A DNA stretch of 12,018 bases from assembly GCA_964525635.1 (NCBI GenBank), contig CAZGJX010000115.1, positions 1-12,018 of the forward strand, given 5' to 3'. The notes under the pieces were generated by a model, which searched no databases, was not told where the DNA came from, and was given only the letters and a program-made list of their open reading frames with translations. The DNA comes from an uncultured archaeon. GTDB taxonomy: Archaea; Asgardarchaeota; Lokiarchaeia; Sigyniarchaeales; SOKP01. The position numbers and the translations under genes were made by a program. Positions 1 to 12,018 of this stretch are shown piece by piece (the first letter of the stretch is position 1; each line of letters opens with the position of its first letter).

Positions 1-77
1 TAATTGAATGCCAATTTTGCTAATCATTCAAAAAACTAAATATTTACAATTTTTTATATGTTTTTATTAAATCGATC

Positions 78-785
78 TTAATTCACGCTCCATGGTCCTT
101 TTGGAATAAATTGAACTTTATCTAAGAATATTTGTTTAATACTTAAAAGATCTGGTCTATAACCTGATCGTGAAGAACTTATAGATATGAATTCAGGGTA
201 TTTTTTCGATAAATCAGACATAAATTGTATAAATTCGTCCATATTATCAATATCTAAATGCTTGAAAAAAATATATGCTTCTTGGAAATTCATTGTAAAA
301 GGATAATTCGAAATTACTTTATCTGAATTATTTAGAAGAAAATTTAAGACTTTTGAGTAATTATTATTTGGAATATTTTCTAATTGTAAGAGATCTCTAT
401 CTAAATTTCTAAATAATGCTGAAAGAATATTTTTATTTAAGACTCCGACTGAAGTAAGAAAATCTTGAATCTTTCGAAAAGAAGCGTTTTTACATGCGTT
501 CACAAATGTAAAAATTAATATATCTATAAACTTTGGATTATCAATAAGATTAAATGATATATCTGGTCTAATCTGAGCACTTTCTTTATGAGTATTTTCT
601 TTTAAGCTAATAAAAAAGATATTAGCACGTCCTTTTTTACCAATAACTTCTATTTTTCCTTGATCCCTTAATTTTTTCACATGATAATTAATAGTGCTTT
701 TAGAAATATCTATTTTTTTGGATATTTGTTCTACTGTTAGTTTTTCTTCTGTTAATAGTTTTAATATTATTTCGGTATTATCCAA
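78..785 (-). CDS. Winged helix-turn-helix (ArsR/TrmB-like) DNA-binding protein with an uncharacterised C-terminal domain
   Basis: N-terminal IILKLL-TEEKLTVEQISKKIDISKSTINYHVKKLRDQGKIEVIG-KKGRANIF is a classic wHTH pattern. TTG start is preceded by purine-rich AAAGGAAG. Confidence 0.8.
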   Translation of the reverse strand: MDNTEIILKLLTEEKLTVEQISKKIDISKSTINYHVKKLRDQGKIEVIGKKGRANIFFISLKENTHKESAQIRPDISFNLIDNPKFIDILIFTFVNACKNASFRKIQDFLTSVGVLNKNILSALFRNLDRDLLQLENIPNNNYSKVLNFLLNNSDKVISNYPFTMNFQEAYIFFKHLDIDNMDEFIQFMSDLSKKYPEFISISSSRSGYRPDLLSIKQIFLDKVQFIPKGPWSVN

Positions 786-1079
786 ATCTATTACTTCCTT
801 TTAGAAATAATCTATTCTGTCTTAATTATAATAATGTATAATAGAAATTTAAAAATATTTGTTAAAGAAACATGATAAATAATATTGAAATGGATCTTAA
901 TAACAATCATTAACTCTAAAATATTTAAGAATTTTCATCCAAACTTATCACATTTATTAATTTTTTTGTCAATTATCCAAGATAAGCATTTCACCAAATC
1001 TTATATCATAATAATATTATTTTTTTATATATAGAAAATTCATTTTTGTAAATTTTATTTCTCAATAATCGAAGAGTAA

Positions 1080-1751
1080 TATTGTTTTTCTGAAAAATTA
1101 GCAAAAAAAATTAGAAAAATCATTGAATATATTATTGCAGTAAGGGATAAAGTTGATCCAAAAGGAGCAATTAATTTCTCAGAGAATTTTTACAAACTTC
1201 TTCTAATGGATGATACTATAGAGAATGCTTATAAATATGCTAAATAAAGATATATATCTTTTATGAAAAATAAAACAGAAAAAATGGGATCTTATGAAAT
1301 GGTCTATCCAGTAAAAAAAGATGATTATTTAAAATTTGGTATAATTGGTTCTGAAGAAAAAATAATCAAAAGTAGTATAATTCAAAAGAAAAGACTAATA
1401 GAAAAAGCAGAACTACATGGAAAAAATATAGAATTAATATCATTATTGAGAAATGATATAAGAAATTTAAAATATGATAAGATTTTAGAGAAAACTCATA
1501 TAAATGAAGAGGTTAGAAAAAAGATTCAGGTAAAAATTGACTCTCTAATAAAGATAACAACGGCAATTGATTCTCCACATAATAGATTACACTTAATTAG
1601 TAAAATAAATGAGCTGGATGCTGATTTCAATTCAAAATTTCCATACCAACCATTAATGGAAAAAATTATTAATGATATTGCACAAATATATAGATTTAGT
1701 ACGGCAGAAATGAATAAAAAGAAGGAAAAAAAGAAGAGAAAAAAAGGATAA
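1080..1751 (+). pseudogene. Degraded CHAT (caspase-like) domain gene; the 1263..1751 ORF is probably its remaining C-terminal part
   Basis: In frame with ORF 1263, positions 1080-1244 read YCFSEKLAKKIRKIIEYIIAVRDKVDPKGAINFSENFYKLLLMDDTIENAYKYAK, then TAA (1245-1247), then RYISF-MKNK...EMVYPVKK. This matches the C-terminal half of CHAT domains (C-x-S...yvI...i.D..Ai.F...FY..L....i..A...A......PV). The frame is also closed upstream by TAA at 1077-1079. Confidence 0.6.
1263..1751 (+). CDS. Hypothetical Lys-rich helical protein, possibly only a pseudogene remnant
   Basis: 162-aa ORF with a basic tail (KKKEKKKRKKG). No clear SD before the ATG, and it continues the interrupted CHAT-like frame. Confidence 0.4.
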   Translation: MKNKTEKMGSYEMVYPVKKDDYLKFGIIGSEEKIIKSSIIQKKRLIEKAELHGKNIELISLLRNDIRNLKYDKILEKTHINEEVRKKIQVKIDSLIKITTAIDSPHNRLHLISKINELDADFNSKFPYQPLMEKIINDIAQIYRFSTAEMNKKKEKKKRKKG

Positions 1752-2041
1752 TTGTTCTAAATGATATTTATAACCACTCATCCAAATTTTTATTACTTCT
1801 GGAAAATAGTTTTCTTCTATGTGATTCATACGATTTCAACTTAGTTAAAGTCATATAACATTAGAAATATAATTTTTTTCCCATTTTCAACGACTTATGT
1901 AAAAATTATTTAATTTAGAAAGTATTTTAAATCCTTGAGAATCCTACTTAGGATTATTTCTAAACACACGACTAAAATATCTTTCTATTAAGTTTATTAT
2001 TTTAATTATATTTTAGTTAAAGTAAGTTATCTATTAGGTAT

Positions 2042-3298
2042 TTAGTAATTAAAGAATTCAGATAATAATTTAGGGTATTTCTTAATAAAGAAACTTAAAT
2101 CCTCACTATCCCAAATTTCTATTAAATTATTGTTTTGTTCCTGCAACTCATCTCCAGTATTTCTAAGATCATCAGAAGCATTTTTTGAGATACATACTAT
2201 ATAACCTTCAGCATTATATTTTTCTAATTCTGGTTTTACTTTTAAAAACTCATCATTCAGATCTTTTCGACTAAAATTTTTATCGCGTTTTGCCTGAACA
2301 ATCCAATTCCGATTGGAATCTACTTTTACTGCTAAAATATCTTTCCCTTTTTCTTTCCCTGCAGCTCCTCGCCACTGAACTTTAGTCCAATCTTTATTTG
2401 ATTTAAGAATCCATAATATTAATCGTTCAAATTCACGAGGAGAAATTGAAGAGTATGGTAATTCCCTTGGTTTAGTAATATTTTCGGATTCTATTTTTTT
2501 GATGAACATTAATTCAATATATTTAGTACTAATCCAATCTCTAAGTATTGAATCTTTAATCAAACTATTATTTTTAGTAAAAATTTTTTCCCTTTTATCA
2601 TAAATAATTGGGGATAATATTTTAAGAGCAAGTCTATAATCATTTAATCCTCCATATTTCATAATTAATAAAGCTATGCCTAATTCTATACCTAATCTCT
2701 GATCCTGAAAACTAAAAACATCAATTGGAAGACTTCCTAAAGAAATAAATTGAATTAGATTGTTTATTAATTCAGAAGAGCTTGAATTTTCAAAATTTTT
2801 CTCAAGATTTTTGAGATAGGTTAGCAATTCTTCTTTTCCTTTCCAAAGTAAAAAAGAAATTCCCAATACAAATTCGAGATGGAAATCCGTGTTCCATTTC
2901 GATATTATATCTTTAATTTGCCCCCATTTAACATCTAATATGTAGATTAGCTGATTTTTTATTTCCTTATTGAAAAAATGGATTGTATCAAACCAAAAAT
3001 AGAGAAATAAATTATAATTCAACCAGAAATAGACTTCATTCCAATTATCAAGCTCTTTTAAATCACTCAGTAAATCTAAAATATCTTCGAATATGTCTTC
3101 AAAAAGCGGTAATTCATTATTTTCAAGCACATTATCTTCGGGGAAGATGTCACTTTCTAAAATTTTCTTTGTTAAAACCAATATCTTTTTTGATTGAAAT
3201 TCTTCTAATATAAGACTATATTTAAAAATTTGATTGATACTTTCTTTAAAATCTATAAATAAGTCTTTATAACATTCATAGGAACCAGGGTGTCTCAT
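2042..3298 (-). CDS. Protein with an N-terminal helical domain and a C-terminal Mrr-like (PD-(D/E)xK, QxK-type) restriction endonuclease domain
   Basis: C-terminal motifs ISPREFERLILWIL, GAAGKEKGKDILA, WIVQAKR, GYIVCIS and IEIWDSEDL match Mrr_cat. SD-like GGGGGG lies 6 nt before the ATG. Overlaps the pAgo 3' end by 23 bp. Confidence 0.85.
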   Translation of the reverse strand: MRHPGSYECYKDLFIDFKESINQIFKYSLILEEFQSKKILVLTKKILESDIFPEDNVLENNELPLFEDIFEDILDLLSDLKELDNWNEVYFWLNYNLFLYFWFDTIHFFNKEIKNQLIYILDVKWGQIKDIISKWNTDFHLEFVLGISFLLWKGKEELLTYLKNLEKNFENSSSSELINNLIQFISLGSLPIDVFSFQDQRLGIELGIALLIMKYGGLNDYRLALKILSPIIYDKREKIFTKNNSLIKDSILRDWISTKYIELMFIKKIESENITKPRELPYSSISPREFERLILWILKSNKDWTKVQWRGAAGKEKGKDILAVKVDSNRNWIVQAKRDKNFSRKDLNDEFLKVKPELEKYNAEGYIVCISKNASDDLRNTGDELQEQNNNLIEIWDSEDLSFFIKKYPKLLSEFFNY

Positions 3299-5564
3299 TT
3301 AAATCCCCCCTTGGAATTATATTATTTTTAGAATATTGTGCAATAATTAGAGCATATTGAAGCGTAATTGGATAATTAGAAGGTATAAAGGTAGTATGTC
3401 TCCAATTCATCCTGGAGAGCGCCATTATATCATAACCCGCATCATGAGGTTTAGCATATACATTTTTATCCCTCATTATAGTAATTTTAAAAGCTTTAGG
3501 AATAGATTTTGGATTGAACGGTTTTGAATATGTACCTTGATAATAACTAGCAAATCCTTGAGGAAATAATAGCCCAGACTTTTCATTGAGATTAATCCAT
3601 GTCCCTCTATTAACTGCTTTTTCATTATAATTCCATTTTAAAGGATGTTCAGATATTGAAATTAGGGCCCCCGCAGAATATTTTGAAGTGTTAAAGCACT
3701 CCAAGAATTCATCAGCCTCTTCCGAAGAGACCGAACCTAGTCGATGAACTACAACCGCTCCAGGACTTTCTTGATGATAGCCTGTTTTGTTAATTAATTT
3801 ATTAGCGTCAGAGAATAATTTTTTAATATCTTCAGAAGGGATTTTCAGACCTTCATACATTCGAGTAAAACCATGGCTTTTAAGAATGAATTTATAATTC
3901 TCCCCAATATTATCAATTGGTATAGATCTAGTTTTAAATCCTAGATATTTTCCATTCCCAGAAAAAACTGTTGCAATACCAAGTACAAATTGATTCCTAC
4001 CATTTTCTCTTTGTCTTGCAAATCGTAATCCTATTATAGTATCTATAGGTGTTCCATTTTTAGCATAATTTGCTTCAATTTGCCAAGGAATTCCCCCCAC
4101 TTTTGAGAAAATCGCTGAAGATGAGCTCCACAGGGGAAGTGATTTATAATTCCCAAAGAATTGACTAAAATTAGTAATTATTTGGTTTGGATAACCTAGA
4201 TATGTGAGGTTTTCTTTAAAATATTTATAATATGGTGTGAATTTTCCCCATTCTTTTTGAGCATTTTCCTTGAACCCAATTAAAAAGAAAGGATTGATCC
4301 TATTTCCTAATTTAAATTTAATTGGTAGATTTGGAACATCATTTTTTACTTCATTCAATATATCTGTAATTTTCCTTTCAAATTCCAATTTAGATAAATT
4401 TAAGGGTAGTTCCTTCGGATTTCTTAAATTGATTTTCAAATTAAATCTCCGTAATAATCCAGGAAAATCATAAATACCTGATCCAGTTCCAGAAATAATA
4501 TAACTTGCAATTTTTGAAATTTTATCCTTAATATATGGTTGATTATCCGGATATAAAGGTATAAAAACTATTGTAGCTCCGGGAGTTTGAAATGGACCAT
4601 ATTGGTTTAATAAATATAATGGTGTATTATTTGGTACTTTTTTTTCTCCTCCAACCCATAATGGTGGCTCATCTAGGACACCGTATTCGATTTTTGAAGG
4701 AATGATTGGTAAAATATATTCTATTAATTCATTATCAATTATATTGAGGTTTTCTTCTTCAATGATTTCATAAATCTCTTCTTCCAATTCTTCGGGAAAA
4801 ATAAAGTCATCAATATATTCTTTTAATTTCTTTTTCTTGGGTTTCTTAATCCGATCTAAATCCTTTAACGGTATTAATTTTAATAATTCCATTTTTTTTT
4901 CCAAAAAAATTGTTAAATTTCCAAAGGTAATTGTTATACTATTTCCTATTAATTCCGTTAATAAGGAATTTAATTCATTGAAATAACTGGAAGTATTTAA
5001 TTGAGATAATCGTTGTAATTCTGTTGGGCTACCTTTTACGTTTCCTTTAATCCTTATAATCCTGCTACATATAAAAGAAACTGTTAAGCTCTCACCTTTT
5101 TTAATTAGTGAAGGAATAAACTGAATACCTTCAAAAACTTTGTAGAAATTGGTAGTGAAAATAGGTTCCTCTTTTAAAAAATCTCTCTTAAATCGAAGTC
5201 CTACTTCTTTTGCGTTTACAAATGTTTTAGTTTTATTAGATTTCAAAATAGAATATTTAAGAGAAGAAAATAAGGCATGAATAAATTGATTTTGACTTTC
5301 TTCATTTTCATTCCATCTAAAAATATCATCAGTAAATATAGAATCCAAATTTAGACCATTTTTTAAAAACGGAGGAGGAATGTGTCTATTATTTTCATCA
5401 ATCGATAAGAATCCAAGCTTTTTTCCTAATGTTAATACATTCCAACCGATATCAAAATATATTCTCCTTATTAATTTCAATTTAATATTTAGATTATCTC
5501 TATCTGTAGTGTAAATTTTTATTTCATCTGATAATTCTTTATTAGATTTAATTATATTAAACAT
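3276..5564 (-). CDS. ago: Prokaryotic Argonaute (PIWI-domain protein), catalytically inactive; probable start is the ATG at 5564 (ORF track uses 5576)
   Basis: Motifs: LDEPPLWVGG...LLNQYGPF and FPGL...F (entry to MID); MID Y-x3-K...GYPNQII...SKVGGIPWQI; PIWI TIIGLRF, VVVHRLG, ALSRMNW and YPITLQYA. The catalytic Asp positions are replaced (G-L-R instead of G-x-D; H-R-L instead of H-R-D). GGTG SD-like motif upstream of ATG 5564. Confidence 0.9.
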   Translation of the reverse strand: MFNIIKSNKELSDEIKIYTTDRDNLNIKLKLIRRIYFDIGWNVLTLGKKLGFLSIDENNRHIPPPFLKNGLNLDSIFTDDIFRWNENEESQNQFIHALFSSLKYSILKSNKTKTFVNAKEVGLRFKRDFLKEEPIFTTNFYKVFEGIQFIPSLIKKGESLTVSFICSRIIRIKGNVKGSPTELQRLSQLNTSSYFNELNSLLTELIGNSITITFGNLTIFLEKKMELLKLIPLKDLDRIKKPKKKKLKEYIDDFIFPEELEEEIYEIIEEENLNIIDNELIEYILPIIPSKIEYGVLDEPPLWVGGEKKVPNNTPLYLLNQYGPFQTPGATIVFIPLYPDNQPYIKDKISKIASYIISGTGSGIYDFPGLLRRFNLKINLRNPKELPLNLSKLEFERKITDILNEVKNDVPNLPIKFKLGNRINPFFLIGFKENAQKEWGKFTPYYKYFKENLTYLGYPNQIITNFSQFFGNYKSLPLWSSSSAIFSKVGGIPWQIEANYAKNGTPIDTIIGLRFARQRENGRNQFVLGIATVFSGNGKYLGFKTRSIPIDNIGENYKFILKSHGFTRMYEGLKIPSEDIKKLFSDANKLINKTGYHQESPGAVVVHRLGSVSSEEADEFLECFNTSKYSAGALISISEHPLKWNYNEKAVNRGTWINLNEKSGLLFPQGFASYYQGTYSKPFNPKSIPKAFKITIMRDKNVYAKPHDAGYDIMALSRMNWRHTTFIPSNYPITLQYALIIAQYSKNNIIPRGDLNETPWFL

Positions 5565-5615
5565 ATTCAGCACCATTAACTATAATTTCAATACTCTTTA
5601 AAAATTCAAATATTT

Positions 5616-7520
5616 TCACAATTTATATTTTTTAATGCTAGGAAGAGATATTATATTTACATCTTCTGATTTTACATATTGACGAGTAAGAGATTCCTCG
5701 AATGTTGTGATGATTAATTGATTTATTAATCCTTTTTTATGAATATCAATGAGATAATTAATTATATTAATTCTATTCTCCAAATTGAGATGTTCTAGTG
5801 GTTCGTCTAATATAAGAAATGGTATTTTTGTATATTTCTTCAAGAGTAGAGTTTTTATTAGTATCATTAAAATCATTTTCTCACCAGCACTTACATTCAA
5901 AAAAGGTATTTCATTACCTGCTTTTTTAAAATAAGGATAATATTTGTTATTAATTGAAAGGATTCTCTCCTCATACGGGAAAAAAGCCCCCCAGATTTCT
6001 TGAATATCTGTGATTAAATCATTTAAATTAATATTTCTCTCCTTTTCTAAGATATCATCTATAGCTTCTATTGTTATATCACAAATTAAAGATCCTTTAA
6101 TACTATCTTTATATTTTTTTTCATATCTCAATGCATCTCTCACTTTTTCAGCAGCTTTATACTCTCGAAGAGATTGGTCAATGTCATTTAATTCTCGTTC
6201 TTTTTTATCTTTTTCAAACCTAAGATTTTTTGATCTCTGTTCCTCTATTTCTATTTTTTTATCAATTTCTTTCATTGAATTTCTTATCCTCTCTAGGTTA
6301 TCCTCATCAAAATTAGATAGTATTTCTAATAAATCAATCAATTCTTTAAGATTATTAACTTTACTTTTTAATAGTTTTACCTTAATTTCTTTCTTTTGAA
6401 TAATCTCTTGAACTCTATATATTTCTTCTTCTAATCTAGAAATCTCATTAATATTATCTTTATGAATCTTAATGAATTCATCTTTCAGCAAGGATTTCTT
6501 ACATAAAGGACAAAAAATTTCTATATTCCCTCGATAATTTATTTCTAACTTATTAATAATCTCTTTGATTTTCTTTCTTTCTGTTAGTTTAATATTATTC
6601 TCAATTCTTTGTTCTTTTAACTTTTGAATCTTAATCTCGATTAATTTAATTTCCTCAACGAAGTCCTTATTTTTATGGCAAATCTGTTTGATATTACTAA
6701 TTAATTGCTGTAGATTTAGTTGCTTAAATCCTATCTCTGAAAATAATTCTGTATTTTGTTTATAAAACTCTTCTATTTTCGATGAAGTTTTATTATAATC
6801 ATAATTTTCACTAAAGTCAATATCCTTAATTTTTCTAAATTTTGATAGTTCAATTTCTATTCTGTTTCTTTCTATCTTTATAGAGTCTAATTTTTGTTTT
6901 AAAATTTCCCTCTTTTTTTCTAGTTCGAATTTATCTCCAATATCTTCTTTCATTTCAAACTTTTTAAGAGCCTCTATTAATTTTTTGTTATCATCTCGTC
7001 TATTATTAAAAACTCTATTTAAATTTCTTATTAAATTTTTAAAATCATTAATCTTACCAATCCCTATTAATTGTTCCAAATAATTTAATAATTGATTTTG
7101 ATTTAATTTAAGGAATTTATAAGTTTCGCCTTCAGAAGAATATAGTATATTTTCAAGAAATACTTTATCTGAACTAAAAATCTTTTCAATAAATTCAAGA
7201 ATTGAATCCTCATTCGTAAGTTCTAGATCTTTTCCTTCTAATTTTGATTTTGAGACACTATTAAATTCTCTTGTAATTTGATATTGATCATTATTTTGCT
7301 TAAAATTCAGAATGACTTTAGTTTCTTCTGTAGAATCGATGTTAATAAATTCTTTTTTATTTTTGGTTCTGACGCGTCCAATTAAACAAAAAACAATAGC
7401 TTCCAATACAGAAGTTTTACCAATTCCATTAAAGCCTATAATAAAATTCACGCCTTTTTTAAAAGTCAAGGATAATTTAGAATGACATTTCCAGTTTTTA
7501 AGAATAATTTCATTTATCAA
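5616..7520 (-). CDS. Short Rad50/SbcC-like SMC-family ABC ATPase with zinc hook; probable TTG start at 7520 (ORF track uses ATG 7535)
   Basis: INEIILKNWKCH N-terminus, Walker A GFNGIGKTS, coiled coils flanking a CPLC hook (6501-6512), signature VSAGE (5880-5894), Walker B FLILDEP (DEP at 5799-5807). GAGGAGG lies 6 nt upstream of TTG 7520. Confidence 0.9.
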   Translation of the reverse strand: MINEIILKNWKCHSKLSLTFKKGVNFIIGFNGIGKTSVLEAIVFCLIGRVRTKNKKEFINIDSTEETKVILNFKQNNDQYQITREFNSVSKSKLEGKDLELTNEDSILEFIEKIFSSDKVFLENILYSSEGETYKFLKLNQNQLLNYLEQLIGIGKINDFKNLIRNLNRVFNNRRDDNKKLIEALKKFEMKEDIGDKFELEKKREILKQKLDSIKIERNRIEIELSKFRKIKDIDFSENYDYNKTSSKIEEFYKQNTELFSEIGFKQLNLQQLISNIKQICHKNKDFVEEIKLIEIKIQKLKEQRIENNIKLTERKKIKEIINKLEINYRGNIEIFCPLCKKSLLKDEFIKIHKDNINEISRLEEEIYRVQEIIQKKEIKVKLLKSKVNNLKELIDLLEILSNFDEDNLERIRNSMKEIDKKIEIEEQRSKNLRFEKDKKERELNDIDQSLREYKAAEKVRDALRYEKKYKDSIKGSLICDITIEAIDDILEKERNINLNDLITDIQEIWGAFFPYEERILSINNKYYPYFKKAGNEIPFLNVSAGEKMILMILIKTLLLKKYTKIPFLILDEPLEHLNLENRINIINYLIDIHKKGLINQLIITTFEESLTRQYVKSEDVNIISLPSIKKYKL

Positions 7521-8271
7521 ATTTTTCCTCCTCATATACTTTTAATCTTTTTATAATATCATCTAAATCAGTAATATCGATTTCTTCTTTCATATATTTT
7601 CTAAAAAGAAGAAAAATGGGTTCGATTTCTTTAATAGCTAACTCTTGCATTAGATCTCTTTTTTCACCTCGAAAGGATCTTGTTTTATAATATGTGAATT
7701 TATCTTTTAAGCTTTGATTAAAATCCTCTATTATTTTAGGCTTTTTCATTTCTTTAATATCTTTAATCGGGGTTTTAATTACCTTTAAGAATTTCTCTCT
7801 CGTCTCTACTTCCCCGTTTATTAATTCTTTTAGAGGTTGACGCTCTTTTTCTATGGTTTCTAGGATTTCCTTATGTTCTCCATATAATTGTTCTCTCTCT
7901 AATTTAACTGCGCTTAATTCTTTATTATTCCATACAATTATAATTCCTACTTGAGATGGATTCTCTAAAAATATTGTTTTGTATTCATCTAACTCCTTAT
8001 CTGTTAGGTTGTTTTCTTCAGAATTAATAACAAAAAGTAGGAATTCTCTGGAATTAATTAATATAATAAAACTAAATGGGAGAATTTTAAATGACTCTGG
8101 AAAATCATGAGGTGGATTAACCTCTTTCACTTTTAATTTTTCATTTGATCTTAAAAAATCATCTAATTTTCTAAAAAAAATAATAAATTTATTCATCTCC
8201 TCATAATCATCCAAGAAATACCCCTCTAAATTAATGAGTTCATCTGGATATTCAGAATCTTTCTCCCCCAT
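7510..8271 (-). CDS. Hypothetical protein; possible inactive restriction-endonuclease-like alpha/beta fold plus a helical C-terminus
   Basis: 253-aa ORF. Its ATG overlaps the upstream stop (TAATG), a GGAGG SD is present, and its stop overlaps the start region of the SMC gene. Beta-strand pattern PFSFIILI...FLLFVIN...VGIIIVWN. Confidence 0.75.
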   Translation of the reverse strand: MGEKDSEYPDELINLEGYFLDDYEEMNKFIIFFRKLDDFLRSNEKLKVKEVNPPHDFPESFKILPFSFIILINSREFLLFVINSEENNLTDKELDEYKTIFLENPSQVGIIIVWNNKELSAVKLEREQLYGEHKEILETIEKERQPLKELINGEVETREKFLKVIKTPIKDIKEMKKPKIIEDFNQSLKDKFTYYKTRSFRGEKRDLMQELAIKEIEPIFLLFRKYMKEEIDITDLDDIIKRLKVYEEEKFDK

Positions 8272-9188
8272 TATGCTTCAGCCCTCCTTTTTCCAATTAA
8301 ATCCTTTTCACCTTTGGCTTTTGGATATACTCTCTGAAGCCATTTATAATGTGCCATACACTTATAAATTCTCATTCTTTCATTATCAATCATAAGCTCT
8401 TTTCTAAATAAAAATTCATCAAATTCTTGGATTTTTTGAAATTTACAACATATAAAAATAGTCGTTAGATAAGTAACAGCAGTAATAGGTATAATATTAA
8501 AAATTGTATATTTCATCCCTGATAATTCAATTGCACCAGAATCTTTTTGATGATTAATAAAATCATATAAACTAACATCGTCTGTAATTATTAAAAATTT
8601 ATGTTCAATATTTTCTCTCATATCTTCAAGAGCAACTAAAAATAAAGAAAGATCTGCTATTTCAATCTCTCTTTTTATTTTTTGTTTAGTATATAGGTCA
8701 GCAATAACCTTTAATTCTTTAAGCTTTTTCTTATCAACTGATTTATAATTAAGATGCTTCTCGTATTCTGATTTTAATTTTTTCTTATTCTCATTAATAT
8801 AATAGAAAGCAATCCTCTTCTCTAATTTTGTTAAAAACAATATCTTTCTATATATAGTTAAGTTAAACTCATTATCATAAACTAATTTTGAGCAAAAAAA
8901 TTTATCTTCTTGACAACAATCGCAAACAAGTCTCAAAAAATGTTTAAAAATCTTAAAAAATTCTCTAAAATTGAGTTGTCTCTTAAAACTAGTGCAGAAA
9001 TTTAAAAAATTTATTAGGAAATTGGAATCACATATAGTATATCTTTTATTTTCACATTTCTTATCAATTCTCTCACAATAACTTATAATAAATCCCCTAT
9101 TTTTGTCTTGGTCAAAAAATTTTGACCTTATAAAAACTAATATGTAATATTTATTTAAATTTAAATTATTCTTCCTTACAAATATCAT
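8271..9188 (-). CDS. PIN-domain nuclease (putative RNase), Cys-rich; start codon uncertain
   Basis: PIN acidic motifs in the correct order: TICDSNFLI (D54), CSKLVYDNEF (E107), IADLSLFLVA (D179), LIITDDVSL (D203/D204). Confidence 0.75.
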   Translation of the reverse strand: MIFVRKNNLNLNKYYILVFIRSKFFDQDKNRGFIISYCERIDKKCENKRYTICDSNFLINFLNFCTSFKRQLNFREFFKIFKHFLRLVCDCCQEDKFFCSKLVYDNEFNLTIYRKILFLTKLEKRIAFYYINENKKKLKSEYEKHLNYKSVDKKKLKELKVIADLYTKQKIKREIEIADLSLFLVALEDMRENIEHKFLIITDDVSLYDFINHQKDSGAIELSGMKYTIFNIIPITAVTYLTTIFICCKFQKIQEFDEFLFRKELMIDNERMRIYKCMAHYKWLQRVYPKAKGEKDLIGKRRAEA

Positions 9189-10019
9189 TTTTCTAGGTAA
9201 TATATTAACATTTAAAATTATAGAGTATTATGATTTTTATATTTAGACAGGATAAGTATATTTCTATCTCTCGAGGATATAAAGAGCTTTCAACTTCTAC
9301 TTATTTTTTTTATATATTTAAAATAAAAAACTGAATGTGGATTGAATTTTTTTATATGTAGATGACTTTTTTTTTAAATAGAATTACTTATAATATAGAG
9401 AGTAAGAAAGAAGCAAATCTTTTCACCTATTAGCTCTTGGGTTTCCATTTCGAATATGTGCTTAAGAAACGGAAAATGGAAAAGAGTAGAACATACAATT
9501 CACAAAGCAACAATACGACAGTTAGACATAAAGAAGACAAGCTCCTCATACACATTTGAAAAAGAGACGTTAGGATTGTATCAAATCATTCAAGATACTT
9601 CTCTTTTGGTACGCATAAGTTAGAAAATGATATACTGCTTATGATAACAAATTTTACTTTTAAAAAAGGATAAGGTAAGGTATAGATAGGGTAAATCAAG
9701 GTTAAGAAGTTATAATTATTAATATCTAGGTATTCTCTTTTATCAATTTAATCTTTAATTTAGGTATTTCGTCTATATCTCGCCTTAAATAGAATATTGT
9801 CGCTATATTGGTTAAAATCTATTTAGAATCAGAATTTACAGAAGATAGATTCAAAGCATCTAGTCATTATTTACGAACATTTATTCTATTAGAATTAGAA
9901 TGACTCTAAGGCATTAATCTATGGAGACCGTTATTTTCCTATGAGTTTAAATAGTCATTTTTTAAATTATATAGTAATAAAATGAAGAAAAATTAACCTA
10001 AAATAAGAGGTAAATAAAA

Positions 10020-10202
10020 ATGAGCAATAATATAAAAAAGAAAAGACTCACTACAGAGGACATAGAGAGAATGATGGCAAACGCCCTTGTAGATGCCTTT
10101 CTATCATGTCCCTATTGTGAATACAACACCTTAGAACCTGACTATAGCACTTGTCCAGAATGTCATAAAAAGAATCCCTTAAGACAACTTGGGATGATCT
10201 AA
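10020..10202 (+). CDS. Small zinc-ribbon protein
   Basis: CPYC-x11-CPEC motif. GAGGT SD upstream of the ATG. Confidence 0.75.
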   Translation: MSNNIKKKRLTTEDIERMMANALVDAFLSCPYCEYNTLEPDYSTCPECHKKNPLRQLGMI

Positions 10203-10222
10203 TTAGGAGGTATGAGAAAAAA

Positions 10223-10717
10223 ATGAAATTGCTATTTAGCATAGAAATTGACTCAAAGGAATGGGATAATGAAACATTTGACGATTCCAACTTTGATAAA
10301 AAAACTCTTGAATCAATGCTATTCGACAGATTTTACGATTTACTAACCGATATTTTAAAAGTCAATGATTTTTCCGATTACATAGAATATGAGCCAAGTA
10401 ACAAAGCAGAAAGGAAACCTATTGAGCAATTAAAAGAGCAGATGACAGAAGAACAATTTAAGAAACTGGAAGATTTATTAGAGGATTTAAGGAAAGAGAC
10501 TAAATTTAGTCTTGGTTATCACAGAATTAGTGGATCATTTTGTCAATATGAAGTTTTAGATTTTAATGAAAAGGAAATAGTAGTTTTATTAGAATATGGA
10601 AAAGTTGATGATGGATCTGATTTTTCTGAACGATATAGAGAGGGATACAGAATTGACAGGAACACCTTAGAATTCATTAATCGAAGACAAAATGAAGAGG
10701 ATGATTTTATCGTATGA
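10223..10717 (+). CDS. Hypothetical acidic protein
   Basis: 164-aa ORF with a strong AGGAGGT SD. Its stop overlaps the next start (ATGA). Confidence 0.75.
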   Translation: MKLLFSIEIDSKEWDNETFDDSNFDKKTLESMLFDRFYDLLTDILKVNDFSDYIEYEPSNKAERKPIEQLKEQMTEEQFKKLEDLLEDLRKETKFSLGYHRISGSFCQYEVLDFNEKEIVVLLEYGKVDDGSDFSERYREGYRIDRNTLEFINRRQNEEDDFIV

Positions 10718-11142
10718 AGATCTACACATTAATCTATTACGAGCCAGATTTTAGAGGCATGAGAATAGGGATATCTTATATGAAGGAAAATCAATTCTAT
10801 GTAGGTTTCTATATAGGGTACTCAGGCGGGGCAGTCTATTCAGATAATTTCTTTAAGGTACATTCCAAGCTAACAGAAGAATCGCTGTTTCAAATAAACG
10901 ATATTGACGAATTCGAACATGAGATTCAACCCAAGCTCCAAGAATGCATGGAATCTATTTGGGATATGTGCATTGATGATGGTTCTTTCATTCCCTACAT
11001 CAAGCCAGAGATATTAAAAACATTTGAACATCATAAAGATGATTTTGGTAGCTCTATCTTTCTTTATGAGAGTGAGGGATTTAATTTTGACCTACTGCGA
11101 TTTCTCTCGAAGCGTTGGAGTCTTCTCACATTTTATAAATAA
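10714..11142 (+). CDS. Hypothetical protein
   Basis: 142-aa ORF with a 4-bp ATGA overlap with the upstream gene. Confidence 0.7.
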   Translation: MKIYTLIYYEPDFRGMRIGISYMKENQFYVGFYIGYSGGAVYSDNFFKVHSKLTEESLFQINDIDEFEHEIQPKLQECMESIWDMCIDDGSFIPYIKPEILKTFEHHKDDFGSSIFLYESEGFNFDLLRFLSKRWSLLTFYK

Positions 11143-11181
11143 TTATGAAATTTTAATAAAAAACGAGAGGGATACAAAAAA

Positions 11182-11352
11182 ATGAATGATTTTATAAAAG
11201 AGCAGAAAATTAAACTTGCGAAAAAACTCGAAAATGAAATCTTCTCTTATGAAGAATATCATGAAATACTGGATATAATTAATACTTTCATTGTTGGAAA
11301 AGATGAATTTTATAAAGAGTTTGTAAGTTTAGTTTTAAAATATTTTCTATGA
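11182..11352 (+). CDS. Small hypothetical protein (56 aa), not in the ORF track
   Basis: Manual translation MNDFIKEQKIKLAKKLENEIFSYEEYHEILDIINTFIVGKDEFYKEFVSLVLKYFL*. GAGAGGG SD upstream; it fills the gap in the plus-strand gene run. Confidence 0.65.
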   Translation: MNDFIKEQKIKLAKKLENEIFSYEEYHEILDIINTFIVGKDEFYKEFVSLVLKYFL

Positions 11353-11371
11353 ATAAAGGAGAGAGAGAGAA

Positions 11372-12018
11372 TTGAAATATCTAATATTGAATCAAGATTT
11401 ACGAGAAGAGGACTCCCTAAGAGAGTTAGAATCAAACTCAATCCAATTAATCCTCACATCACCCCCATACTTCAATGTTAGAAATTATAAAAAACACTCA
11501 AGATCAAAAAGAGCATTACTTCAAGACGCTAAGATATACGAAGAATTAAACGCCCAAGAGAAGACAATTGTAGATTATGAACAGTATCTAAGGGAAATGA
11601 AAGGGATTTTCTTTCAATTGAAGCGATTATTAAAAAATACAGGATATATCATTGTCATTATCTCAGATATAACCTCAAATAAGATTCATTTTCCCCTCTC
11701 ATTTCATTTTTTCAATCTTCTTTCAGAGATATATATTTGGACTGAAACTATTATATGGGATAAGACCTTAGAGTTTAATGATAAGAAACACCGAGTCCAG
11801 AAATATCTTTACCAACCTTTTAGCTTTTACTATAAACCGAATTGGTCGCATGAATATATCTTAATTTTCACGAAATCAAAAGATTTTCCACGATCAGATT
11901 ATATTAAAGATTCCAATTTTAATAAATCTGATTTTCTCTATAATTATTCCCGTTCTATTTGGCATATTACTCCAATCCCCCCTGATCTACAGGATATTCA
12001 TCCTTCTCGATTCCCTTT
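11372..12018 (+). CDS. Beta-class amino DNA methyltransferase (N4-cytosine/N6-adenine), truncated by the window end; not in the ORF track
   Basis: TTG start after AAAGGAGAG. Manual translation MKYLILNQDLREEDSLRELESNSIQLILTSPPYFNVRNY...RLLKNTGYIIVIISD...ETIIWDK...HEYILIFTK...RSIWHI...HPSRFP. N-terminal SPPY motif IV and the later HPxxFP motif are typical of N6_N4_Mtase; the frame stays open to the end of the window. Confidence 0.9.
   Translation, partial: MKYLILNQDLREEDSLRELESNSIQLILTSPPYFNVRNYKKHSRSKRALLQDAKIYEELNAQEKTIVDYEQYLREMKGIFFQLKRLLKNTGYIIVIISDITSNKIHFPLSFHFFNLLSEIYIWTETIIWDKTLEFNDKKHRVQKYLYQPFSFYYKPNWSHEYILIFTKSKDFPRSDYIKDSNFNKSDFLYNYSRSIWHITPIPPDLQDIHPSRFP

Follow-up and report, generated by a model that had tools for sequence, protein, structure and literature searches.

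A fused N-L1-L2 and MID-PIWI Argonaute overlapping an Mrr-type nuclease gene: a candidate two-gene defence module of Lokiarchaeia-type Asgard archaea

The DNA analysed here (the window) is a stretch of 12,018 nucleotides from an uncultured archaeon of the Sigyniarchaeales (Asgardarchaeota, Lokiarchaeia), corresponding to positions 1 to 12,018 of the forward strand of contig CAZGJX010000115.1 (GenBank assembly GCA_964525635.1). The window has a GC content of ~25% and carries on its minus strand an open reading frame (ORF) of 766 uninterrupted codons (3276-5576), which encodes a prokaryotic Argonaute (pAgo), P0001. A second gene on the same strand, encoding P0002, overlaps the Argonaute gene by 23 nt. 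The features of this gene pair are listed below; domain models were obtained with AlphaFold2, and pLDDT denotes the predicted local distance difference test score.

3276..5576, minus strand: Argonaute gene, 766 aa (P0001); ORF listing and translation, PADLOC and homologue comparison
4872..5576, minus strand: N-L1-L2/APAZ-like domain of P0001, residues 1-235, with no PAZ and no effector domain; AlphaFold2, VIA-align and Foldseek
4692..4871, minus strand: acidic, Lys-rich linker of P0001, residues ~236-295, predicted to be disordered (pLDDT ~25); sequence and AlphaFold2
4077..4691, minus strand: MID domain of P0001, approximately residues 296-500, with the pocket Y450, K454, Q465, K492; the MID/PIWI boundary is approximate
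3279..4076, minus strand: PIWI∗ domain of P0001, approximately residues 501-766, with R518 / E575(?) / L613 / L743; alignments
3305..3310, minus strand: GGGGGG, a Shine-Dalgarno-like run within the 3′ end of the Argonaute gene, 6 nt before the ATG of the partner gene (3298)
2042..3298, minus strand: partner gene, 418 aa (P0002), putative trans effector; Pfam, homologues, AlphaFold2 and synteny
2465..3298, minus strand: all-helical N-domain of P0002, residues 1-278; AlphaFold2, fold and sequence searches
2045..2464, minus strand: Mrr-type PD-(D/E)xK nuclease domain of P0002, residues 279-418; Pfam Mrr_cat, invariant columns and fold

P0001 was assigned to the Argonaute/PIWI superfamily by its homologous MID and PIWI domains, using PADLOC and a profile search of the PDB. 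The PADLOC pAgo model PDLC02436, whose 460 positions equal the length of a short pAgo, matched residues 301-751 at E 5e-50. Pfam gave no domain match in P0001 itself; Pfam Piwi was annotated in the homologues P0013, P0027 and P0034. The true start of the protein is perhaps Met6 (5561), because MFN opens most homologues. A pattern of short pAgos, which a first-pass annotation of the window had noted, was located in the translation as EPPL (303-306), YGP (326-328) and DFPGL (370-374), and the PIWI∗ domain ends in TPWFL, as is typical of the clade. A family profile of residues 286-766 was compared with the PDB, giving a full-length match to the short pAgo of SPARSA (8in8_C, E 2e-9), followed by local matches (~100 residues) to RsAgo and EcAgo at E about 1e-7 and then by the SPARTA pAgo, AfAgo and the SPARDA pAgo; long-A proteins were not among the matches of this profile. 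Following a single-sequence phmmer search of P0001 against the PDB, the long-B protein EcAgo ranked first (E 5.7e-6).

The 5′-phosphate pocket of the MID domain (Y450, K454, Q465 and K492; Y-K-Q-K type) is invariant across the P0001 family and aligns with the corresponding residues of EcAgo (by phmmer) and RsAgo. Its K, Q and K columns were likewise invariant or nearly so in 39 Asgard pAgos. For the catalytic tetrad, the first position was identified through EcAgo G492, named as such in PMC13535254, with which R518 of P0001 aligns. Following alignment with the D-E-D-D Asgard pAgos L043, L044 and L049 (GxD / EGE / RDG / SD), R518 (codon 4023-4025), L613 (3738-3740) and L743 occupied the three Asp columns, while E575 was found at or near the column of the glutamate finger. 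Three of the four positions of the DEDX tetrad that marks slicers are lost. The first-pass annotation had placed the losses at R518 and L613 and had called the pocket intact; both codons and the pocket were confirmed, and L743 was added to the losses. Judged by these residues, the PIWI domain is catalytically dead. With the tetrad lost and the pocket kept, P0001 is therefore predicted to bind guides and to be unable to slice.

Full-length P0001 was modelled with AlphaFold2 from an alignment of 10 sequences. The overall model was poor, with a confident part at residues 1-232 (pLDDT 70-90). Using VIA-align, residues 3-235 were best matched by SiAga1 (8znj_B; Z 15.5, root-mean-square deviation 3.5 Å, 215/237 residues). 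The APAZ parts of SPARTA (168-418) and SPARSA (328-584) and AfAgo-N (Z 11.8) were aligned at Z ~12, and TtAgo, KmAgo and CpAgo at Z about 11, with model residues 1-234 spanning chain residues ~6-313 and the PAZ domain being skipped. Foldseek returned SiAga1 at E 6e-7, together with the APAZ halves of SPARTA, SPARDA, SPARSA and SPARHA, AfAgo-N, and the N-lobes of RsAgo and of long-A pAgos. By structure comparison, P0001 carries an APAZ-equivalent fold and a MID-PIWI core within the same chain. The resemblance to APAZ/N-L1 elements had been noted by eye in two N-terminal strings, VFEGIQF...SFICSRIIRIKG (residues 147-178) and RLSQLNTSSYFNELNSLLTELIG (residues 189-211); both are present in the translation, and the fold matches bear the resemblance out.

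At the sequence level, a profile of the N-domain retrieved only its own family from 1.8 billion representatives, with no similarity to APAZ sequences, and nothing from the sequences of the PDB. Across 400 Asgard genomes it found fused copies only, in 4/400 genomes. A further weak match in genome G231 was rejected as spurious, as it lay in a housekeeping ORF. No TIR, SIR2 or nuclease domain was detected in P0001 by Pfam, NCBIfam or PADLOC, in agreement with the first-pass annotation. A PAZ domain would not fit, because the gap between residue 235 and the MID domain consists of a ~60-aa disordered Asp/Glu/Lys-rich linker. A PAZ remnant was not found either, the structural alignments to long pAgos passing from N-L1 directly to L2.

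In P0002, the Pfam domain Mrr_cat was detected at E 5e-6 (27 bits, compared with a cutoff of 21), and E291, D320 and Q335-x-K337 were invariant in 11 sequences. The AlphaFold2 model (pLDDT 81) consists of an all-helical domain (residues 1-275) followed by an alpha-beta-beta-beta-alpha-beta core. This core was aligned by VIA-align with AF1548 (1y88) at Z 13.0 (root-mean-square deviation 2.3 Å, 111 aa) and with the nuclease domains of AspBHI, LlaBIII, FokI, MspJI and Avs4 at Z ~10. By its Mrr_cat domain, its E...D...(Q/E)xK motif and its core fold, P0002 belongs to the Mrr-type nucleases, and its motif residues indicate that the nuclease motif is intact. The helical N-domain gave only generic alpha/alpha matches (Z <= 8.2) with Foldseek and VIA-align, and no sequence match to P0002 was obtained among all PDB chains, including entry 23wq. 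This domain is proposed to be an Argonaute-docking or autoinhibitory module. A complex prediction using alignments of Argonaute residues 1-240, Argonaute residues 286-766 and P0002 residues 1-275 gave an ipSAE of 0.00, which speaks neither for nor against binding.

Relatives of both proteins are rare, as only 10-17 of each were retrieved from a collection of 5.8 billion proteins. They share contigs, and all stem from Promethearchaeota or from sediment metagenomes. Wherever downstream DNA is present, the partner gene lies directly downstream of the Argonaute gene, overlapping it or within 4 nt; the sole locus without a partner gene stops at the contig edge. The pair was found in L063 (Argonaute 82% identical), L004/L005 (62%), L002/L003 (48%) and L008/L040, and also in L062, which belongs to a different taxonomic family and whose MID-PIWI part is 37-39% identical. 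A search for related loci returned family members only. Upstream of the pair the genes vary: the window has an SMC/LmuB-like ATPase and L004 has McrBC, whereas L002 and L063 have unrelated ORFs. The neighbourhoods across the loci are rich in defence genes: McrBC, HinfI restriction-modification, SLFN/AlbA_2, nSTAND, Csa3, HEPN-AAA and methylase genes were found. The first-pass annotation had offered, as one of two readings, a single-chain APAZ-Argonaute whose effector is supplied in trans; this reading is supported by the N-L1-L2/APAZ fold together with the overlapping, syntenic Mrr-nuclease gene.

Several further observations were made on the neighbouring genes. In the window, the Argonaute gene is preceded by three ORFs in the same orientation (5616-9188, minus strand): P0003, a 639-aa SMC/Rad50/LmuB-like ABC ATPase, P0004 (253 aa) and the Cys-rich P0005 (305 aa). 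P0004 and P0005 gave no match in Pfam, NCBIfam or PADLOC, P0005 being matched by no PIN model, and the trio was not found beside the Argonaute-nuclease pair in the other loci examined. Farther out, a winged helix-turn-helix regulator resembling ArsR/Csa3 (78-785, minus strand) and an N6/N4 DNA methyltransferase gene cut to its 5′ part by the window end (11372-12016, plus strand) are consistent with a defence island. In L062, which holds the most distant family member, an AAA ATPase of 1078 aa that bears a Swt1-like HEPN domain is encoded downstream of the pair (4269-7505). The partner gene of L003, an ENA assembly whose locus is otherwise identical to L002, was called in two pieces (79 aa and 302 aa; 4552-5717), reflecting a frameshift or an assembly error.

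Scanning the 400 Asgard genomes with the PADLOC pAgo model yielded pAgos in 75/400. PDLC02436, the best PADLOC model for P0001, is hit by canonical Asgard short pAgos with 300-390 bits. A tree of 48 MID-PIWI segments was constructed using IQ-TREE, with no verified long-B reference included; a tblastn search of plasmids with P0034 gave unnamed Piwi proteins, unusable as labelled long-B references. The P0001 family is monophyletic, and its sister group consists of HrAgo2-like short pAgos of 471 aa (ultrafast bootstrap (UFBoot) 96 / SH-aLRT 97), so that on MID-PIWI it forms a clade with HrAgo2-type sequences. This clade stands apart from the canonical Asgard short pAgos, in a tree that resolves the sister grouping but not the deeper node towards canonical short and DEDD-type sequences.

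P0001 and a HrAgo2-like 471-aa pAgo were 29% identical over 333 aa (BLASTP, E 2e-30), and the HrAgo2-like pAgos carry the same R/L/L substitutions in the tetrad and the same C-terminal TPWFL. In their operon, the pAgo gene stands between the genes for a 207-233-aa protein (upstream) and a 405-435-aa protein (downstream), with PCNA ahead of them and a TOPRIM gene farther along. L059 was taken as HrAgo2-like because its PCNA...TOPRIM operon fits the published description of the HrAgo2 locus, which carries PCNA, TOPRIM and transposition genes (PMC11217426). The trio of overlapping genes for the 207-233-aa protein, the 471-aa pAgo and the 405-435-aa protein (weak DUF4145) is kept in three genomes (L059 6478-14500, L060 7439-10855 and L061 5292-8708), with PCNA and TOPRIM flanks in L059. 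No similarity was found between the P0001 N-domain and the 207-233-aa upstream proteins, or between P0002 and the 405-435-aa downstream proteins (for both, hhalign probability <1% and BLASTP). The two proteins flanking the HrAgo2-like pAgo might correspond to an APAZ-equivalent in split form and to an effector.

In the survey by Bastiaanssen et al. 2024 (PMC11217426), the HrAgo2 subclade was placed as sister to short pAgos and said to comprise both long and short Asgard Argonautes. Eight sequences of the P0001 family, recognisable by the motif RMNWRH, are contained in the supplementary alignments of that study, and neither APAZ nor Mrr occurs as a term in its main text. The family is already catalogued there, its domains and partner being undiscussed.

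Other Asgard pAgos were encountered as well. The genome of the window contains at least two or three further pAgo-like genes, which are unrelated to the P0001 family: one of 754 aa with Pfam Piwi (G000:C25:29612-30823; L055 4568-6832) and one of 745 aa with an adjacent 632-aa gene (G000:C46; L056 5917-8154 and 4019-5917). Asgard pAgos of 918-1008 aa were found in L009-L013 and L023 (G321, G365, G370, G316, G318 and G312). Together with L016 they form one clade nested among the canonical Asgard short pAgos. Of these proteins, only that of L009 was scanned with Pfam; its short-pAgo core is fused to a Schlafen/AlbA_2 domain at the N-terminus (compare the SLFN-pAgo preprint of 2026).

Taken together, we consider it probable that P0001 and P0002 form a two-gene, guide-directed Argonaute defence module of Lokiarchaeia-type Asgard archaea, and most likely a new arrangement of known modules, not a new kind of system. 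P0001 would act as a single-chain sensor, built from an N-L1-L2 (APAZ-equivalent) lobe, a flexible acidic linker and a MID-PIWI∗ lobe. A 5′-phosphorylated guide would be bound in the intact YKQK pocket, and invader nucleic acid complementary to it would be recognised by the loaded protein. Judging from all characterised inactive pAgos with this pocket, RNA is the probable guide and DNA the probable target. Once the target is bound, P0002 may be recruited or released from repression, and the Mrr-type PD-(D/E)xK domain at its C-terminus would degrade DNA indiscriminately, resulting in abortive infection or plasmid clearing. For docking or autoinhibition P0002 may use its helical N-domain, comparable to that of bAgaN in BPAN. 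Precedents for such a sensor are the inactive pAgos of EcBPAN and SiAgo-Aga1/Aga2, which recruit a separate effector only after guide-target binding. The most likely function of the pair is accordingly target sensing through a guide that activates a collateral nuclease, comparable to BPAN, SPARDA and the SiAgo system.

Three observations weigh against this proposal. The MID-PIWI part of P0001 was modelled without confidence by AlphaFold2 (pLDDT ~25), so that the bilobed architecture is derived from homology. The nearest relatives, the HrAgo2-like pAgos, are found in operons with PCNA and TOPRIM and not with classical effectors, so that the clade may have a role outside defence. In the genome of the window, the pair lies only 39 nt downstream of the SMC-like gene on the same strand, so that extra components may take part there.

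Four other explanations were weighed against the two-gene module. We regard it as unlikely that P0001 is a long-B pAgo that lost its PAZ domain, in which case the pair would be a true BPAN system with P0002 as a divergent bAgaN. EcAgo was the top PDB match by phmmer and RsAgo and EcAgo were matched by the family profile, P0002 shares with EcbAgaN a two-domain layout of an N-domain and a C-terminal PD-(D/E)xK domain, and PAZ-less truncated long-B pAgos do exist, for example AfAgo/fAfAgo. However, RsAgo and EcAgo are matched locally, over about 100 residues, whereas the best E-value belongs to a short pAgo that spans the whole MID-PIWI part. Canonical Asgard short pAgos likewise hit the PADLOC model that is best for P0001, the 471-aa HrAgo2-like short pAgos are the sister group of the family and have the R/L/L substitutions in common with it, and the HrAgo2 subclade is itself sister to short pAgos according to Bastiaanssen et al. 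(PMC11217426). P0002 moreover has no sequence match to PDB chains, entry 23wq included. A long-B pAgo with a reduced PAZ had been the other reading of the first-pass annotation; it gained no support, as no PAZ remnant was found and MID-PIWI groups with HrAgo2-like short pAgos, in a tree without a verified long-B reference. It is quite improbable that the pair is non-immune and serves a mobile element or DNA replication or repair, for example by guide-directed DNA processing. PCNA, TOPRIM and, according to PMC11217426, transposition genes do occur in HrAgo2-like operons, and some pAgos aid replication or recombination (PMC11217426), but such genes accompany no locus of the P0001 family. The genes found beside this family are of the restriction-modification, McrBC, SLFN, nSTAND and HEPN types, and its constant partner is a restriction-type nuclease.

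Very little probability was given to a larger new defence system made up of all five consecutive minus-strand genes (P0005, P0004, the SMC-like P0003, the Argonaute and the Mrr nuclease). The five ORFs run in one direction and either overlap or leave short gaps, that between the SMC-like and Argonaute genes being the 39 nt given above, and P0003 resembles defence ATPases of the LmuB/Rad50 type; yet P0003-P0005 are absent beside the pair in all other loci examined, among them L002, L004, L062 and L063, the last being 82% identical. The five-gene unit is disfavoured because conservation covers the pair only. The lowest probability was assigned to an Argonaute that alone, as an RsAgo-like guide-loaded binder, silences the transcription or replication of invaders, with the Mrr gene as an unrelated neighbour. 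Interference without cleavage is known for RsAgo, and Mrr-type genes are common in defence islands. Adjacency and overlap of the two genes are nevertheless strict across 39-87% identity and differing flanks, and the Argonaute and partner families have matching, very narrow distributions.

If P0001 and P0002 form the proposed module, a concrete effector would be assigned to the 'long' Asgard members of the HrAgo2 subclade, so far without assigned function. The pair would also be a compact two-protein candidate for assays of programmable, target-activated nucleases. The wider impact would be moderate, because the family is small and restricted to Promethearchaeota. It is conceivable, if doubtful, that in the archaeal lineage closest to eukaryotes the family survives as an intermediate between long and short Argonautes, namely a PAZ-less single chain that retained or regained N-L1-L2, is sister to the short HrAgo2 and has its nuclease docked via a novel helical adaptor. 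Its activation assembly would then be unlike those of SPARDA, BPAN and SiAgo.

Compared with known classes, P0001 has neither the short-pAgo architecture in the sense of Ryazansky 2018 and Koopal 2022 (MID-PIWI, or SIR2-APAZ-MID-PIWI as in S1A), as a 235-aa N-L1-L2 domain is fused to it, nor the long-B architecture N-L1-PAZ∗-L2-MID-PIWI∗. To the long-B clade the family is linked by the local profile matches to RsAgo and EcAgo only, the tree holding no verified long-B reference. HrAgo2 is short and consists of MID-PIWI only, whereas the P0001 family has the fused N-L1-L2 domain and a constant Mrr-nuclease partner. SIR2-APAZ-pAgo of type S1A and fAfAgo (AfAgo-N with AfAgo) also combine APAZ/N-L1-L2 with MID-PIWI∗ and lack a PAZ. 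However, S1A carries SIR2 in the same chain, which is missing from P0001, fAfAgo is split and long-B, and neither has a dedicated Mrr partner of the P0002 type.

The SiAgo system (PMC11788926) resembles the pair in that SiAga1 is the best structural match of the P0001 N-domain, in that SiAga1, like this domain, is recognisable from structure only (PMC11788926), and in that the APAZ-equivalent and the effector reside on different proteins. SiAgo-Aga1 binds Aga2 only once it carries both a guide RNA and a target DNA (PMC11788926). The systems differ in that the Aga1-like module is fused to the Argonaute in P0001 whereas SiAga1 is separate, in that SiAgo belongs to a different clade, and in that the Aga2 effector is a membrane protein whereas P0002 is a soluble Mrr-type nuclease. 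BPAN (EcAgo with bAgaN; PMC10620215, PMC13535254) shares with the pair an inactive single-chain pAgo sensor with an N-terminal lobe; in EcBPAN, bAgaN is autoinhibited and is recruited by RNA-guided EcAgo only once target DNA is bound (PMC13535254). bAgaN is a separate protein of ~400 aa in which a regulatory N-domain precedes the C-terminal PD-(D/E)xK domain; P0002 is likened to it by layout, entry 23wq not being among the results of the fold searches. Unlike P0001, EcAgo is long-B and retains a PAZ∗; bAgaN is RecB-like with D-EVK, whereas P0002 is Mrr-like with D-QxK, and the partners have no detectable sequence similarity.

SPARDA (a short pAgo with DREN-APAZ) also combines an inactive pAgo, an APAZ-type lobe and a nuclease effector of the Mrr superfamily. 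There, however, the nuclease is N-terminal on APAZ and the Argonaute is MID-PIWI only, whereas P0001 itself carries the APAZ-equivalent and P0002, which is not of the DREN (DUF4365)-APAZ type, has no APAZ and bears its nuclease C-terminally behind a helical domain. The pair would represent a third wiring of the three modules N-L1-L2/APAZ, MID-PIWI∗ and effector, in which APAZ resides on the Argonaute and a free nuclease has its own adaptor domain. In this respect the P0001 family may inform how short, long-B and SiAgo-like systems arose from one another.

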